This document shows positions 22,538 through 32,512 of a DNA stretch of 64,000 bases, piece after piece. A program made the position numbers and the translations under genes. How positions within the stretch are numbered: position 1 is the first letter of the stretch; the number at the start of each line of letters is the position of its first letter. This DNA comes from an uncultured virus (IMG/VR IMGVR_UViG_3300037296_000405) (Duplodnaviria > Heunggongvirae > Uroviricota > Caudoviricetes), in the IMG/VR virus record IMGVR_UViG_3300037296_000405. One strand, written 5' to 3'. The notes under the pieces were generated by a model, which saw only the letters and a list, made by a program, of their open reading frames with translations, was not told the origin of the DNA and did no database searches.

Positions 22538-22566
22538 TTGACTCTATTTGTTTTTATAGGTATAAT
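22538..22566 (+). promoter_or_regulatory. sigma70 promoter TTGACT-N17-TATAAT
   Basis: near-consensus match ahead of three-gene operon. Confidence 0.75.
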
Positions 22567-22589
22567 ACTACTAAACGAAAGGATATATT

Positions 22590-22844
22590 ATGAGTAAAAT
22601 AGGTTATCACTTAAAAGACATTCCGAAAGGAAAGATTGGAGAGGTTAGTAAGATTCAAGAAGAAGTGCTTGAGTTAGAAGATGCAGAAACACAAGGTATT
22701 AGAATAATGCAACTAGTTGAATTGTCAGATATTTACGGAAGTATTGATCTTTATTTAAAAAATCATTTTCCTGACATAAGCATGGATGATTTAGCAGATA
22801 TGAGTAGAGTTACTCAAAGGGCTTTTATTAATGGAAAAAGATAA
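22590..22844 (+). CDS. MazG-like NTP pyrophosphatase-fold protein
   Basis: KIQEEVLEL...VELSD (EExxE...ExxD). Confidence 0.7.
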   Translation: MSKIGYHLKDIPKGKIGEVSKIQEEVLELEDAETQGIRIMQLVELSDIYGSIDLYLKNHFPDISMDDLADMSRVTQRAFINGKR

Positions 22845-23385
22845 TTTATCATTAGAAGTAAACTTAGATGATTTTTCGATAGATTTTCTAAAAAAAAATA
22901 ATCAGAGGTTGTATTACTTTGGTCTAGGGTTTATCCAATTAAAATTAACAGATAATCATAGAGTTCACTTTTATACTGATCAACTAGACAATAATACAGA
23001 TTCTATTCATAATCATAGATATGATTTTTCTTCAAAAATATTAAAAGGTACATTTTGTAATAAAATTTTTAATCAAGTCAAAGGCTCTGATTACGTATTA
23101 GTTAATGAAAGTTGTAATCCTGATATTGATGCCCCTGAAGAGAAAGAGACCTGTTCAGTAATAGAAATATCAAAAATTGAATATAGAACTAATGATATTT
23201 ATCAAATGGACCATAAGAAATTTCATCAAGTGTCATCTAAATATGCTGTAACTATATTAGAACGTTCTGATTATAAGCAAGAGTTTGCTCAGATTATCTA
23301 TAAAAAAGGAGAAGAGAGAAATTGTCCTTTTAAAATAAAGAATGAAGATTCAGTATTGTGGGAAATAATAAGGAGTATGTTATGA
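22831..23385 (+). CDS. cupin/double-stranded beta-helix protein
   Basis: IHNHRYDFSSKILKG and later FHQV. Confidence 0.65.
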   Translation: MEKDNLSLEVNLDDFSIDFLKKNNQRLYYFGLGFIQLKLTDNHRVHFYTDQLDNNTDSIHNHRYDFSSKILKGTFCNKIFNQVKGSDYVLVNESCNPDIDAPEEKETCSVIEISKIEYRTNDIYQMDHKKFHQVSSKYAVTILERSDYKQEFAQIIYKKGEERNCPFKIKNEDSVLWEIIRSML

Positions 23386-23963
23386 TTGATTACAAAAAGA
23401 TTGCAGATAGTATTTCTTTTTTTGATAAAGAAAATTATAAAAGGATAGAAGCTCCTTGGTGGGTCAGTCAGGATATTTCTAATATTACAAAGCCGAAAGA
23501 AGAGCAAGCTAATGATTACTTTATTAACCAGAATCAGAAATCACTTGTAGCCTCTGGTGAACAATCCTTTCTTTACCTCGCTAATAAGGGAAGGCTTCTA
23601 GAAGGTCAGTATCAGACGACAACACCTTGCTTCAGGAATGAGTCAATAGGAGTTCTTCATAAGAAGTGTTTTATTAAGAACGAGCTTATAAAGACCGATA
23701 AAGTTACAAAGACAGAGTTAGATAAAATGGTCGATATTGCATTTCAATTTTTTCTTAATTATTTTGATAAATCTGACATAGAAATAATTGAAACAGATAA
23801 GAATTCTTATGATATCCAAACTATGAATTTAGATAAAAATATTGAGCTTGGATCTTATGGGATTAGAGATTGTGAATTTCTTGAATGGATATATGGAACT
23901 GGATGTGCAGAGCCTAGATTAACTAGGGCTATTAAAATTAATGAAAAATATAAAAGTAAATAA
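23382..23963 (+). CDS. stand-alone class II aminoacyl-tRNA synthetase-like catalytic core
   Basis: motif 1-like IEAPW, LVASGEQ, motif 2 PCFRNE, ELGSYG, motif 3 GTGCAEPRL; no anticodon domain; ATGA overlap. Confidence 0.8.
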   Translation: MIDYKKIADSISFFDKENYKRIEAPWWVSQDISNITKPKEEQANDYFINQNQKSLVASGEQSFLYLANKGRLLEGQYQTTTPCFRNESIGVLHKKCFIKNELIKTDKVTKTELDKMVDIAFQFFLNYFDKSDIEIIETDKNSYDIQTMNLDKNIELGSYGIRDCEFLEWIYGTGCAEPRLTRAIKINEKYKSK

Positions 23964-24186
23964 TGAGTCTTTTTTTCTTATCTATAAATAATTTATAGCA
24001 TGCGCTATGCTCTTTACTTTTTTGATGGTTTTTATTTTATTTATATAACGCTTAATCTTTAATAATAAACAGGAATACTAATATATTATTGTATTTCTAT
24101 TTATTTCATGTAAATCATTGATGGAGTTGGGATTCAATTAGTGTTTAGAGAGTAAGTAAATTGACTTATTAGTATGTGTTTGTTTT

Positions 24187-24411: not shown

Positions 24412-25059
24412 ATGAAATATTATTATATAGAACATGACCAACATACTCTGCCTAGACCCACTGAAGTGAAAATTCTTAAAAGGACTAAATCTCAAGTTTT
24501 TATAAAAAGGAAATCAGGGAAAGAAGTTTTAGTTCCTACCAAATACATATTTGCAGAAGATGAAGTTTCATTTGTCGAAAATGAATACTATATAGAAACT
24601 GAAGATACATTTAAATATAAAAGTGTTAGTCTTGGTAAAAATGAAGCTAAAGAAGTGTTCTCTGCTCTAGGAGTTTATCTAAGAATAGACGTAGAATCAT
24701 CATCATTCAAGATGCCTCCAAAAGACATATTATATATACGAATGTGTGCCAACGTAATTCATAGTTTTAAAGTTAAAAAATCTTTTAAAGGCACTAACAT
24801 CAAGCTTATTCAAGAATATTCCCCAAATACAGATGGTAAGAAAGATCGATATGGACATAAGTATCTACTTGATTTAGATATCACCAAACCAAGTAATCTT
24901 ATATATGTGTTACAACATCAAGGATACAAGAGTCATTCACTATTTATCCATAAAAAGAATGGTCTGTTTTTTAACTATCAATTTTCAAATAAAGAAACTA
25001 ATGATTTATTTAATGTGTTAGCTGAATACTTAGATTATGAAATAAAGGATTATAGATGA
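24412..25059 (+). CDS. hypothetical protein (tandem paralog A)
   Basis: SLGKNEAKEVFSALGVYL shared with next gene. Confidence 0.75.
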   Translation: MKYYYIEHDQHTLPRPTEVKILKRTKSQVFIKRKSGKEVLVPTKYIFAEDEVSFVENEYYIETEDTFKYKSVSLGKNEAKEVFSALGVYLRIDVESSSFKMPPKDILYIRMCANVIHSFKVKKSFKGTNIKLIQEYSPNTDGKKDRYGHKYLLDLDITKPSNLIYVLQHQGYKSHSLFIHKKNGLFFNYQFSNKETNDLFNVLAEYLDYEIKDYR

Positions 25060-25715
25060 TAACTCACTACATGATTCAACATAATGATAAAACTAAAGCA
25101 ATTGGAGTCAAACTAGTTTTTAGTCAAGATTTTAGCCATGTAATCGAAATTAAGAAAAAGAAGAATCTAGTTTATAATTGTTCTTTAATTAGAAAAGAAG
25201 ATATAGGTTTTATTGGTAAAAATTATTACACTAAAGATAAAAAAGGGCTTAACTATAAAAAATTCTCGATGGGTAAAGAAAATTTAAAATCTTTCTTCTA
25301 CGCTCTTGGTTTATATTTAGACATTGAAATAGAGGGAGCTAAAGCCATAGTTATCCCTGATAATATCGTATACACTTATGACGAGAGAAGAAATTTGTCA
25401 CTATTACCATTTCTAATAGATAAGACAATAAGAGATAAAAAAGATATTGTTGCAAGACAAATTTTTACTTATACTAAGGTAACAGGTGATACATACTCAA
25501 CAAAAGATTGCTATCAAGGTATTTATGTTTTTCATAAAAAAAGTTCTTCTCTAATTAGACCTATCTTCGTTGAAAATAATTCAGGTTGTGTTTGGAGACA
25601 TACTTACATCGATAGTAATATCGGAGTAGTTATTTATCGTAAAAAACAAAGTCATGAGGAATGTTTAGAATTATTTGAAGTACTATGTCATTATTTTGGA
25701 TATAACTTATTATAA
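25056..25715 (+). CDS. hypothetical protein (tandem paralog B)
   Basis: SMGKENLKSFFYALGLYL; ATGA overlap. Confidence 0.75.
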   Translation: MITHYMIQHNDKTKAIGVKLVFSQDFSHVIEIKKKKNLVYNCSLIRKEDIGFIGKNYYTKDKKGLNYKKFSMGKENLKSFFYALGLYLDIEIEGAKAIVIPDNIVYTYDERRNLSLLPFLIDKTIRDKKDIVARQIFTYTKVTGDTYSTKDCYQGIYVFHKKSSSLIRPIFVENNSGCVWRHTYIDSNIGVVIYRKKQSHEECLELFEVLCHYFGYNLL

Positions 25716-27840: not shown

Positions 27841-28554
27841 TTATTTACATTCTCCAATAAACTTATTAACATTACCTTGATATTTCGCTTTTAAGCAGTT
27901 TATTCTTTTTTCCTCGCTATCGATAGGGTCTAGCTTATTCCAAGCATCATAGAGCTTCCTGTTGGATATCACCTTAATTCCATATCTATCTTGCATATAA
28001 AACATGATTCTAGCAACATCTCCTTTTACAGAATCTCTTGGCTCGGCTTTCCTATTTTCAATCTCAAAATCACATTCTCCATATTTTCTTTTTTCACCAG
28101 AAATTTCAGTTAGTCTAAAATTACTTCTTCTTCTATTAAGTTCTGGTAAAGCAGGAACTAAATTATGCAAATCAGCCTCCATAGCTTTATATTTAGGGTC
28201 TTTCTTTGCACATCTTCTACCTTTATATCTTTTACCTTTATTTTTACCTTTTTTTATAATACACTTAGGATCTCCTTTGAACCAGAATGGGAGATGCCTT
28301 CCAAAGCTGCTGGCTGCTGATACATGTTCCCAATCGATGAAGCCCTTATAATTTCCTGAGGGGATATATCCACAGCTTGAGGTATCAACTTTTTTTGTTT
28401 TATATGAGTAATCACATCCACAATAAAATGTCTTATATTCTGGATATATTTTTTTAAGAATCTTTTTTGCTTTATTAAAAGACGATACCTTATGATTAAA
28501 GTTATCTGCAAAAACATTTCCTGTTATTAAAATAATTACGATTAATAATTTCAT
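27841..28554 (-). CDS. endA: endonuclease I (EndA/Vvn family), secreted
   Basis: signal peptide; FYCGC, WEH, EADLHNL.P, N..RSN, KGDVARIMFYM. Confidence 0.92.
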   Translation of the reverse strand: MKLLIVIILITGNVFADNFNHKVSSFNKAKKILKKIYPEYKTFYCGCDYSYKTKKVDTSSCGYIPSGNYKGFIDWEHVSAASSFGRHLPFWFKGDPKCIIKKGKNKGKRYKGRRCAKKDPKYKAMEADLHNLVPALPELNRRRSNFRLTEISGEKRKYGECDFEIENRKAEPRDSVKGDVARIMFYMQDRYGIKVISNRKLYDAWNKLDPIDSEEKRINCLKAKYQGNVNKFIGECK

Positions 28555-29382: not shown

Positions 29383-31452
29383 TTAAAACAGCTCTTCGAT
29401 CAGGTTTCTTTGCTTTCGGCTTAATCTCTTTCCGTCATTGGAGTATTCTTTTAAGTCATTAATTAATTCTTGAGCAAATTTACTTTGATTATAATGTACA
29501 GTTAGTTCAAGTTGTCCCAAAGTATTTTGATACTCTTCCATTGTATTTGCTGTCCACCATATTTTTTTAACAGGATTCCATACGAAGCCTAAATCTTTGT
29601 ACTTCTCTCTATCTTTGAATTGACTTTTTTTAACTTGAATGATAAACCTTTGTAGATCGTCTAGAGATTGCTTTATGAATGATAGATAAGGAGGAAGAGA
29701 ACCACTTGGAATAATTGTAAGTTCATCAATGCATTCACTTAGAGTTGTTGAAGAATAGTAACTTCTATCTAAAAATTGTTCTAAATTAAAAGATTCTCTC
29801 ATTCTAGACTGTACTTTTTGAATATTAAAAGTATAAGTTGTGTTTGCAACTTCATAAAAGTTAGTGTCGTCGCTAGTCTGCTTAGTTTTAACTTTTTTTC
29901 TATTTTCTATTCTAGTCCATTCACAAAGGTCTTTTAAGGCATTTTTATTTTTATCACTAGGTTCTGAATTTTGAATACCTCTATGTTGTTTTACAGTCCA
30001 GAGACCTCTAACTCGAATTAATTCTGCAGTCGATTTTTTATTATCTATAGTGATATTAAATATTCTATGTTTTTCATTGATTGAATCAGAATAACCTCCA
30101 ACACAATGAATCATCTCTTCTCCTTCTAATTCTAGGTCAACAGTTGTGGTTAGTTCCTTGAATGAATCCTTCATTGGAAAACCATCTAAGTTTAAAGGAG
30201 TAACAAGGATTCTCTCTCCTTTTCTTCTTTTTGTCCAAAATTCATCAACAAGCTTCTTTACTGATTCAACAACTTCAATAGTGTTTTTAGGCTTAGGTAA
30301 TTCTAAGTCAGGGTAATTCTCTATAAATCCAATTATAGAAAGACGTTCAGTTGATAATCTATTGATGAAATCTATTAGATTTTGAATGGACCAACCTTGT
30401 TTAATTAGATGAGAATTTACTTTAGCTAGTGCAGAGTGTTCTTTCATAAATTGAGATAGTTTTAGCAATTTTTCTTCGTTGAAGTCTTTTTTTATTAAAT
30501 TATTAATTAAATCTTTAGATAAGTATTCTTTTCTATTGCCAATATAGATTAGATTAGAAAAAGCAAGTACAGATTTTTTGTTTTGCGCTTCAGGAGAACC
30601 CTCAATAAAAAAGTTTGTGTTTCGTAATATAAATTGTTGAGCAAGTTTACTCATTTTATAAAACCTAGATTTTGAAATTAGTGGATGAGATTTATTTGAA
30701 TAGTTAATAGCTAATTGGTCGTTTTGTATTTCGAAATAAGAATTGTCTTCTAAGTATTTTAAATTTTCTTTATTAGGTTTCGAAATATAAAGTCTATTTA
30801 TTGTGAAAGTACTTAGGTCAGTATAAGAAAACTTATCATAGATATTTAAATAAAAATTTTTATCAGCTCTATTCCAGTCATCTCTACCTAAAAGTAAAAG
30901 TGACACCCTCATAAAATCTTTTTCTTTATCGTACTTTAGAGTTTTAAAGTCATGAACTATTTTTTGATTAGATATGAAATTATCAAAACTATAGTCTTTT
31001 TTTGGTATTTCTATTGTAGATGTCTTTAAGAATTTGATAAATTCTGAACTGAAAAATAACATATTTTTTGATGGAGAATAAGCTACTTGTAAATAATTAT
31101 AAGAAGTATCTACATCTATAAATTCTTCAAGTATAGATTTCGTTATATTTATATTATCTAAATCTATAGAAAATTTACATTCATATTGGTGAAAATTATT
31201 TTTAAATGAGTGACCAACATTATTTATTTTAGAATGACTAATATTATTATTTGTGTTTATATTTACTTTTACAAAGCTAAGTTGTTCAATATTAAAATCC
31301 CCACCAGTAAGATAAGCTACTAGCCATCGACTAAACTGAACACCTTGCACAATCAAATCTTCGCCAAGAAGTTCTTTATCTTTAAGTTTTGAAATTTTAG
31401 ATTTAATTAAATTACAAATTTTGAATCTATCATTATTAAATTTATTTATCAT
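29383..31452 (-). CDS. PcfJ-like domain protein (large)
   Basis: LELEGEEMIHCVGGY...STAEL...QHRGIQN. Confidence 0.75.
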   Translation of the reverse strand: MINKFNNDRFKICNLIKSKISKLKDKELLGEDLIVQGVQFSRWLVAYLTGGDFNIEQLSFVKVNINTNNNISHSKINNVGHSFKNNFHQYECKFSIDLDNINITKSILEEFIDVDTSYNYLQVAYSPSKNMLFFSSEFIKFLKTSTIEIPKKDYSFDNFISNQKIVHDFKTLKYDKEKDFMRVSLLLLGRDDWNRADKNFYLNIYDKFSYTDLSTFTINRLYISKPNKENLKYLEDNSYFEIQNDQLAINYSNKSHPLISKSRFYKMSKLAQQFILRNTNFFIEGSPEAQNKKSVLAFSNLIYIGNRKEYLSKDLINNLIKKDFNEEKLLKLSQFMKEHSALAKVNSHLIKQGWSIQNLIDFINRLSTERLSIIGFIENYPDLELPKPKNTIEVVESVKKLVDEFWTKRRKGERILVTPLNLDGFPMKDSFKELTTTVDLELEGEEMIHCVGGYSDSINEKHRIFNITIDNKKSTAELIRVRGLWTVKQHRGIQNSEPSDKNKNALKDLCEWTRIENRKKVKTKQTSDDTNFYEVANTTYTFNIQKVQSRMRESFNLEQFLDRSYYSSTTLSECIDELTIIPSGSLPPYLSFIKQSLDDLQRFIIQVKKSQFKDREKYKDLGFVWNPVKKIWWTANTMEEYQNTLGQLELTVHYNQSKFAQELINDLKEYSNDGKRLSRKQRNLIEELF

Positions 31453-31528
31453 GTTTAAATAATAGCATGATAACAAAGAGATATCAATATTAATTTGCTT
31501 AATTTTAGTTAATTTGCTATAATTAGTA

Positions 31529-32512
31529 ATGGGAAAGATATATCTAACAGGGATAAAACCAACAGGAGAAATACACTTAGGAAACTATTTAGGTGCAATA
31601 AAACCTTCTTTAGACATGGTAAACGAAGATGATTTATTTTTGTTTTTTATCGCAGATTACCATGCATTAAACTCAATGAATAGAGAAGAAAGTAAACTAA
31701 TAAAATCAAATACTTATAAGATATTAGCGACTTATATTACATGTGGTTTAGACCCAAAAAAAGTTCTTTTTTATCGACAAAGTGATATATCTGAGATATT
31801 TGAACTTAAAACTATTCTAAATAATTTTACCCCAAAATCTTTACTCAATTTAGGACATGCCTATAAATCTAAAGTGAATGAAGAAGGTTTAAACAACTAT
31901 TCTAATATAAACATGGGATTGTTTAATTATCCAAGTTTAATGGCATCTGACATATTAGCATTTAATTCTAATTATATTCCTGTAGGCTCGGATCAGATTC
32001 AGCACATAGAAATTGCAAGAGAAATTGCAAGAAGATTTAATTTTAATATAGGTAAAGAATTAATAACTTTACCTGAAGCAATAGTCAAAGAGCCTGAAGT
32101 GTTAATTGGTATAGATGGTAGGAAAATGAGTAAGTCTTATCAAAATACTATTCCAATTTTTTGTTCTGAGAAGAAACTACATAAGCTTATAAAATCTATT
32201 AAGACAGATTCTACTCCAGTGGACTCACCTAAACCTTTAAATTGCGATATTCGTAATATATATAGTAAATTTGCTACTGAAGATCAACTTTGTCATTTTG
32301 ATAATAAATTAATAAATGGCATAAGTTATGGAGAAGCTAAAGATTGCCTTTTTGAATTGATAAATAACCAACTGAATCCGATGAGATTACATTACGAACA
32401 ATTAGTCACAGATACTAAGAATTTAGATAAAATATTGTTACAAGGTAAAGTAACTGTTAAACGAATCTCTGAAAAAAATCTAAACAAGATTAAAAAAAAT
32501 CTTATCGGATAA
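31529..32512 (+). CDS. trpS: tryptophan--tRNA ligase
   Basis: TGIKPTG.IHLGN, ADYHA, YP.LMASDIL, GSDQ, KMSKS. Confidence 0.95.
   Translation: MGKIYLTGIKPTGEIHLGNYLGAIKPSLDMVNEDDLFLFFIADYHALNSMNREESKLIKSNTYKILATYITCGLDPKKVLFYRQSDISEIFELKTILNNFTPKSLLNLGHAYKSKVNEEGLNNYSNINMGLFNYPSLMASDILAFNSNYIPVGSDQIQHIEIAREIARRFNFNIGKELITLPEAIVKEPEVLIGIDGRKMSKSYQNTIPIFCSEKKLHKLIKSIKTDSTPVDSPKPLNCDIRNIYSKFATEDQLCHFDNKLINGISYGEAKDCLFELINNQLNPMRLHYEQLVTDTKNLDKILLQGKVTVKRISEKNLNKIKKNLIG

Follow-up and report, generated by a model that had tools for sequence, protein, structure and literature searches.

A recurring viral gene pair of an armless seryl-tRNA synthetase-type core and a predicted MazG-fold protein, with an optional cupin

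Introduction

Among the described systems closest to the module reported here is Atd1 of Pectobacterium phage PcCB7V, a small single-domain MazG-like protein that dephosphorylates ppGpp with a Km of about 50 uM, hydrolyzes neither rNTPs nor c-di-GMP, lowers (p)ppGpp in cells, and rescues from TIR effectors, 10-fold for T5 against retron-TIR (10.1101/2022.06.09.495361). The substrates named in the text of that work do not include dNTPs, and Atd1 was studied there alone; neither of the partners discussed below, a synthetase core and a cupin, appears in its text (10.1101/2022.06.09.495361). Atd1 is also cited by itself in the accessible parts of 10.64898/2026.01.27.700999 and PMC10419184. That the enzyme acts on ppGpp and not on rNTPs suggests a preference for a substituted nucleotide. 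The histidine pathway offers a parallel. In the series HisG-HisE-HisI, HisE takes a substituted NTP from the preceding enzyme and is fused to the next. HisE needs the substituted NTP and, according to the accessible part of one report, cannot process the diphosphate PRADP (PMC10242683).

On the synthetase side, the bacterial and eukaryal seryl-tRNA synthetases (SerRS; TIGR00414; 7u2a, 1ser, 2dq3) have about 430 residues and an N-terminal coiled coil. Several other class II cores, EpmA, AsnA, Bll0957, and HisZ, have no tRNA-binding domain, and we know of none of these that is paired with a pyrophosphatase. The amino acid:carrier protein ligases are marked by a methanogenic-type Zn site. In the Z-genome phages, a MazG-fold enzyme (MazZ) is paired with an amino-acid:nucleotide ligase (PurZ) that has the PurA fold. 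Finally, the 3-His thiol dioxygenases (CDO, PCO/ADO) are proteins with an HxH...H triad and no acidic ligand.

Here we analyze three adjacent genes, which we call M, C, and S, of an uncultured virus. The module is real and recurring, and consists of one partly characterized member (M), one unstudied ligase (S), and an optional cupin (C). The hydrolysis of ppGpp reported for Atd1 was known already; the cupin as a real, optional third member is new. In a search of openly available main texts, we came across no work that studies S, C, or the S-M pair. The accessible part of PMC7824862 does not describe the pair, and in that of PMC8953757 a phage SerRS near two MazG genes is annotated as an ordinary synthetase.

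Results

The locus

The window, that is, the whole 64,000-nucleotide stretch of DNA analyzed, belongs to a virus record of 147,356 bases with an estimated completeness of 58% and a G+C content of ~26%, in which no tRNA gene was found. The metagenome runs that contain the stretch are salt-lake samples. In one of them (X1), a single contig, which may be the source of the record, covers the whole stretch with 0 differences, and pieces from a separate study cover 27 of 30 bins, again with no difference. The DNA of the stretch is sound.

M, C, and S are three overlapping open reading frames on the + strand, 3′ of a promoter-like site. M (22590-22844, 84 aa) has a predicted HisE/MazG fold and belongs to PHROG 6408. 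C (22831-23385, 184 aa, start codon uncertain) is a cupin with a His triad and overlaps M by 14 nt. S (23382-23963, 193 aa, PHROG 4806) is an armless SerRS-type class II core; its ATG at 23382 overlaps the stop codon of C in the sequence ATGA, and an AAGGAG site lies upstream. An alternative start for S is a GTG at 23358; homologs, however, start with MIDY.

The original prediction had placed one strong promoter before three overlapping genes. The genes and the site are there: a sigma-70-type TTGACT-17-TATAAT at 22538-22566 (+), called by its 11/12 consensus match alone and one of 3 such sites within 7 kb. The word "strong", on the other hand, is unproven, since promoter-like sites as a whole are no more frequent than expected by chance (45, against 53.8 ± 8.7 after shuffling) and an equally good divergent match (11/12) lies upstream at 22512-22484 (-), back to back with that of the operon. 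Behind the divergent site stand small genes without assignment (22425-21377, -). Past the end of S, at 23994-24022 (+), a weak hairpin of 6 pairs with a T-rich run behind it is a possible operon end (the 70-base stretch folds with -5.9 kcal/mol in all), but a terminator scan called 0 terminators, this hairpin included.

M and its link to Atd1

The prediction of a MazG-fold protein for M holds up. All 58 members of its family keep an EExxE...ExxD metal cluster together with an upstream lysine (K21, E24, E25, E28, E44, D47); Y6, H7, Q35, and F79 are invariant as well. The helices of M are consistent with a helical hairpin carrying the cluster. The nearest Pfam model is HisE/PRA-PH, which matches 52 of the 58 members at E ≤ 0.1 (best 6e-6). 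A Foldseek search puts HisE/MazG entries on top, none of them at E 0.001 (best E 0.45, probability 0.94, 1yvw), and the match by VIA (Z 6.1, rmsd 1.8, 62 aligned) ties with unrelated bundles. A likeness of the N-terminus specific to HisE was considered and is unsupported; M against E. coli HisE gives E 0.54.

In PcCB7V, the 86-aa protein QQG33500.1 belongs to the M family, with 51% identity to M and an E-value of 8e-29. Its gene is 2 genes from a nucleotidyltransferase (NTase), and an S gene follows three genes downstream. The Atd1 screen considered ORFs that are shorter than 200 aa and no more than 4 genes away from an NTase (10.1101/2022.06.09.495361). QQG33500.1 falls under this rule, and the other MazG gene of PcCB7V, which lies 30 kb away with no NTase annotated in the surrounding 8.5 kb, does not. 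QQG33500.1 is therefore most likely Atd1. The S gene, being fifth from the NTase, lies outside the 4-gene range of the screen. The text of the Atd1 paper gives no accession, and we infer from this correspondence that M likely belongs to the Atd1 family.

S is an armless SerRS-type core

S is a class II core without the tRNA domain, as originally described, with the addition that not only motifs 2 and 3 are present, but also a motif 1 region that aligns to SerRS. Searches with a single sequence were uninformative, both against the PDB (nothing useful) and for loci (no result). Of 2588 candidates, 2427 are homologs of S, and a profile of 120 rows ranks SerRS first in the PDB, with E 4e-4. The structural model (pLDDT 94.9) has SerRS as its best Foldseek match (E 9e-10) and aligns with it over 189 residues by VIA (Z 19.5, rmsd 2.7). 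SerRS ranks ahead of HisZ/HisRS, PylRS, Bll0957, AsnA, and EpmA; the cores that, as S, have no tRNA-binding domain (EpmA, AsnA, Bll0957, HisZ) reach Z 13-18.

We counted conservation over 169 clusters of S at 80% identity. S58, E60, Q61, C83, K99, and E101 are invariant, and R85 (167/169), T173 (166/169), R179 (165/169), E155, and S158 are nearly so; position 87 is E in 123 clusters and D in 37, and H93 is kept in 153. In E. coli SerRS, S58-E60-Q61 matches T237-E239; R85/E87/F97/K99/E101 correspond to R268/E270/F287/K289/E291; E155/S158 to E355/S358; and T173/R179 to S391/R397, these last motifs having been aligned by eye. We take the roles of the SerRS residues to carry over to S. The residues for ATP and Mg and those of the serine pocket (TxE, KxE of motif 2, S/T of motif 3) are kept, and the pocket is of the bacterial type (S58/E101/T173), which together with the lack of a linked carrier sets S apart from the amino acid:carrier protein ligases.

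The differences from SerRS are also clear. S has no N-terminal coiled-coil tRNA arm, being 193 aa in all, and relative to SerRS the loop of motif 2 is shortened by 7 residues. Short motif 2 loops occur also in class II enzymes that charge tRNA. Against TIGR00414, S scores 16 bits, far from the cut-off of 301.65. A weak search among 7988 candidates of 414-2000 aa produced no armed form of S, and one longer form that is not armed. In a 443-aa protein (P0278), S is fused to a C-terminal region without assignment.

We conclude that S is likely an active serine-adenylating enzyme, a prediction from its conserved residues, and not a SerRS by membership; the amino acid used is most likely serine. S is mislabeled in cultured-phage records as a histidyl- or seryl-tRNA synthetase. 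The label of PHROG 4806, "histidyl tRNA synthetase", was rejected, since HisRS/HisZ rank below SerRS with 8-12% identity and 74 of 120 members match serS at E ≤ 0.1; a PylRS-like role was rejected too, with only 9/120 members pointing that way. A 578-kb phage carries a full-length SerRS as well as the mini module. tRNA genes occur near S in 23/109 loci, with no serine bias (tRNA-Ser in 7/109 loci, Leu in 8). Few natural class II cores with a complete active site are as small as S, and this makes it relevant to synthetase evolution.

S and M are a fixed pair

S and M form an obligate pair, of which the cupin is not an obligate part. Among 50,697 cultured-phage records, S is found in 275 and M in 279, with identical lists of genera. 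M lies within 2.5 kb of S in 133 of the 135 S clusters with 1-kb flanks (the other 34 of the 169 do not have such flanks and are left out of this count), and S lies within 4 kb of M in 79 of 80 loci fetched with M. The two genes occur in both orders, and in 7/169 S clusters they are fused. S-M fusions are also present on contigs that bear giant-virus MAG labels (L065/L222, L235). The distribution of the pair among unrelated phage genera is patchy, and its hosts belong to several phyla. Species genomes, 185,579 of them, contain only 5 loci, all on MAG contigs. A predicted complex of two S and two M chains scored 0.01, which is no evidence either way. In one locus (L197, 4270 and 4852), S occurs in two tandem copies after a single M.

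We looked for a fixed fourth partner and found none; no other neighbor family exceeds 8/169 clusters. We scanned 67 neighboring proteins, which represent 63 of 109 recurring neighbor clusters plus 4 extensions of M. They form a loose assortment of nucleotide, NAD/ADP-ribose, and RNA-repair genes, with ThyA, DHFR, dCMP deaminase, RNR, and dNMP kinase among them; carrier protein, EF-P, HisG, and HisI are all missing from the recurring neighbors. One variant on an archaeal-labeled MAG contig (L089 3846-6444) has, in a row, an AAA_28 kinase-like gene, an S-M fusion, and a radical SAM gene.

The cupin is a genuine but optional member

Relatives of C number 874 at E ≤ 1e-10 among representatives at 50% identity. 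In the best 150 of these together with the window sequence (151 rows), H60 and H132 are kept in 151 and H62 in 150, in agreement with the HxH...H cupin of the original prediction; there is no Glu or Asp at the usual fourth position. R44, F66, S68, and G73 are invariant, C95 and C165 are kept in 149 of 151, and H46, R63, Y64, Y124, and a motif of its own, FGLGFxQ, are also conserved. The Atlas model of C has TM 0.54 to JmjC and 0.49 to Cupin_7 models, and the nearest named Atlas clusters are CDO and PCO/ADO at 0.77-0.79, below the 0.9 bar. Profiles of the family gave no real match in the PDB, with designed-repeat artifacts in one search; of 23 cupin members, 1 matches Cupin_2 of Pfam and 0 match CDO_I or PCO_ADO. 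It is by the Atlas model that we place C in the cupin superfamily, with HxH...H on a modeled double-stranded beta-helix, and we predict that it binds metal. C shares its triad without acidic ligand with the thiol dioxygenases, from which the FGLGFxQ motif and the two conserved cysteines set it apart.

Is the cupin part of the module? Among the best 150 representatives, 12 are fused to M (11 as C-M, 1 as M-C) and 0 to S. In Phab24 an M-C fusion precedes S, and C lies between the other two genes whether S or M comes first. Of 23 cupin loci in IMG/VR, 10 are linked to M and S by adjacency or fusion, another 10 have S or M elsewhere on the contig, and 3 have neither; a second cupin scan returned the same 23 contigs. 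S or M thus occur on 20/23 cupin contigs, compared with 1/17 controls (Fisher p 3e-7, which is overstated because some rows are near copies). The controls are PTH2-bearing contigs of at least 100 kb, 17 of 51 loci, with shorter ones and seed contigs left out, and the sole positive among them is a fragment of 22 residues. All 15 phage records matched by C carry M, but they amount to about three lineages. On a FastTree tree of S, in a row set enriched by the cupin scan, cupin-linked rows are scattered (12 changes for 14 of 169 rows). The co-occurrence of the three genes elsewhere, which had been put forward as a check, is therefore found.

On the other hand, the cupin family appears in only 10/170 loci fetched with S, in 0/80 fetched with M, and in 0/49 further S+M contigs, selected among those with no cupin known beforehand. 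We found no distinct pocket residues in cupin-linked S proteins. The cupin is real, but it is an optional third member. The three genes are thus not an obligate three-step pathway: S and M alone are obligate, and the cupin is a minority partner.

Beyond the module, PB1 gp11 (L317 2456-3043), annotated as hypothetical, is a true homolog of C (hhalign 99.2%) that is missing both cysteines. Weak matches of the PB1 type in 284 Pseudomonas records suggest that this sister is common to PB1-like phages. In one locus (L041 4518-4748) a 76-aa cupin remnant between S and M keeps both ends and has lost the middle with the His triad. The M of AbTZA1 (L003 3357-3980), whose S is sister to that of Phab24, has a C-terminal extension of 127 aa; we considered it as a decayed cupin and rejected this, the match being only E 0.006. 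Short HxH cupin-like genes of another type lie near S+M at L080 5351-5740, L124 3392-3916, and L139 3221-3763, and at L054 4543-4932 such a gene directly abuts S.

Discussion

What do S and M do together?

Our best reading, in which we place somewhat less than even confidence, is that S attaches serine to a nucleotide polyphosphate, M then removes pyrophosphate, and C oxidizes the product, with disposal of an alarm nucleotide as the likely purpose. Judging from its kept residues, S would make seryl-AMP from ATP. Because S is armless, the seryl group would then go to a nucleotide polyphosphate and not to tRNA. M would take the 5′ (pyro)phosphate off the substituted nucleotide, and so pull the serylation forward, as HisE does after HisG; the activity has been reported for the family, and the order of substrates is our supposition. 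C, which is often joined to M as HisI is to HisE, would oxidize the product once it is bound at the metal site. Genomes without a cupin would omit this last step, or would use a kinase and a radical-SAM enzyme in its place. The phage would likely profit from a stringent or abortive response that is blunted early in infection.

This reading is consistent with the coupling of S and M, the intact SerRS site, the Atd1 link, the cupin-M fusions, and the kinase/radical-SAM variant. The analogy with the histidine pathway is incomplete, as HisG and HisI are absent from the module. Against the reading are that Atd1 acts on ppGpp alone, an activity for which S is not needed, that the cupin is dispensable, and that S-M fusions occur in giant-virus- and archaeal-labeled contigs. 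The hosts of such contigs mostly lack a ppGpp stringent response, and these carriers argue against ppGpp as the sole substrate. That the redox partner may be either a cupin or a radical SAM enzyme fits a small-molecule product.

The fullest version, a widespread viral three-enzyme pathway to a novel seryl-nucleotide, in which S serylates an alarm or immune nucleotide, M trims it, and the two-cysteine cupin or a radical SAM enzyme oxidizes it, is more doubtful. If it were true, it would be a new counter-defense chemistry, of which the hydrolysis of ppGpp seen with Atd1 would be no more than one half. Removal or remodeling of a nucleotide signal had been one of the options offered for the operon, and it gains support from the likely membership of M in the Atd1 family, while the chemistry is our proposal.

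Other explanations

SerRS without its arm loses tRNA specificity. The module could then be two independent arms against the stringent response, in which M degrades (p)ppGpp and S charges any uncharged tRNA with serine, removing the trigger of RelA. We consider this unlikely. It would account for the reported activity of Atd1 (10.1101/2022.06.09.495361), for the intact serine site of S, and for the tRNA genes close to S in some loci. But independent arms are expected to be found often alone, and S and M nearly never are, and neither the cupin-M fusions nor the kinase/radical-SAM variant is explained. The acidity of S (median pI 5.4, 145/169 below 6.5) also speaks against it, which is a weak point, given that the core of E. 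coli SerRS has 5.78.

Decidedly unlikely, in our view, is a modified DNA base made in the pattern of MazZ/PurZ, with M converting dNTP to dNMP, S adding serine, C or the radical SAM enzyme tailoring, and a kinase restoring the triphosphate. The operon of kinase, S-M fusion, and radical SAM has the right composition, the nucleotide genes scattered around S+M (ThyA to dNMP kinase) are of the right kind, dNTPs are not named as tested for Atd1, and two unlinked cupins come directly after ThyA, whose end they overlap (L256 3931-5576, L261 3970-5528). However, neither a polymerase, as dedicated in MazZ/PurZ, nor a kinase or any other gene accompanies the pair regularly, the pair occurs patchily, in phage genera that are unrelated to each other, and the accessible literature listings on the carrier phages yield no lead to such a base.

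Orthogonal to these, the cupin could be a fellow traveler with its own substrate, which shares no more than the promoter. It is absent from most S+M genomes and unlinked on 13/23 contigs, its PB1 sister lives without M, and a cupin of another type stands beside S in L054. We give this a comparably small chance, since C-M and M-C fusions both exist and the cupin gene separates S from M whichever of the two comes first, and since, even where unlinked, the cupin shares its contig with S or M in 10 of 13 cases, a situation seen in 1/17 controls.

In a further scenario serine would be catalytic only: S would move AMP from seryl-AMP onto ppGpp or NTPs, giving ApppGpp and Ap4N, which M would cleave or limit. 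Class II synthetases make dinucleoside polyphosphates without tRNA, and S has the conserved H93 in its short motif 2 loop, which we presume to be LysRS-like. A longer chain could also help M, if it is limited as HisE is with PRADP (PMC10242683). The chance of this is slim, as Atd1 already acts on ppGpp, the cycle would be partly futile, and the cupin would be left without a substrate.

Finally, it is highly improbable that S serylates a protein or carrier, possibly M itself or a host target, by analogy with the stand-alone cores of EpmA and the amino-acid:carrier-protein ligases (structural neighbors 3a5y at Z 13.6 and 3mey at Z 16.1), because no carrier protein is among the recurring neighbors, the acidic metal cluster of M is complete, as in an active hydrolase, and the hosts of the pair span several phyla; the modification of a host protein, also suggested originally, thus finds no support.

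About 275 of the 50,697 cultured-phage records carry the pair, many of them of phages that are tractable in the laboratory, and the link of M to Atd1 gives an experimental foothold. This link suggests that a longer reaction includes the ppGpp activity already published, and the cupin-M fusions in both orders together with the radical-SAM variant point to a small-molecule product.

Other genes in the record

Several other genes in the window deserve mention. Downstream of the operon, at 24412-25715 (+), two genes (215 and 219 aa) overlap each other, and neither can be placed in Pfam or clearly in a PHROG family. They are followed at some distance by an Endonuclease I-like gene (27841-28554, -) and a PcfJ-domain gene of 697 aa (29383-31476, -). 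A TrpRS-like full-length class I synthetase at 31529-32512 (+) matches tRNA-synt_1b with E 1e-49, in a record where no tRNA gene was found. Outside the window, three genes at 138360-142828 (-) of the record (G000:C1) are perhaps host DNA at the end of what is classed as a provirus; their N-termini presumably resemble the threonine operon.
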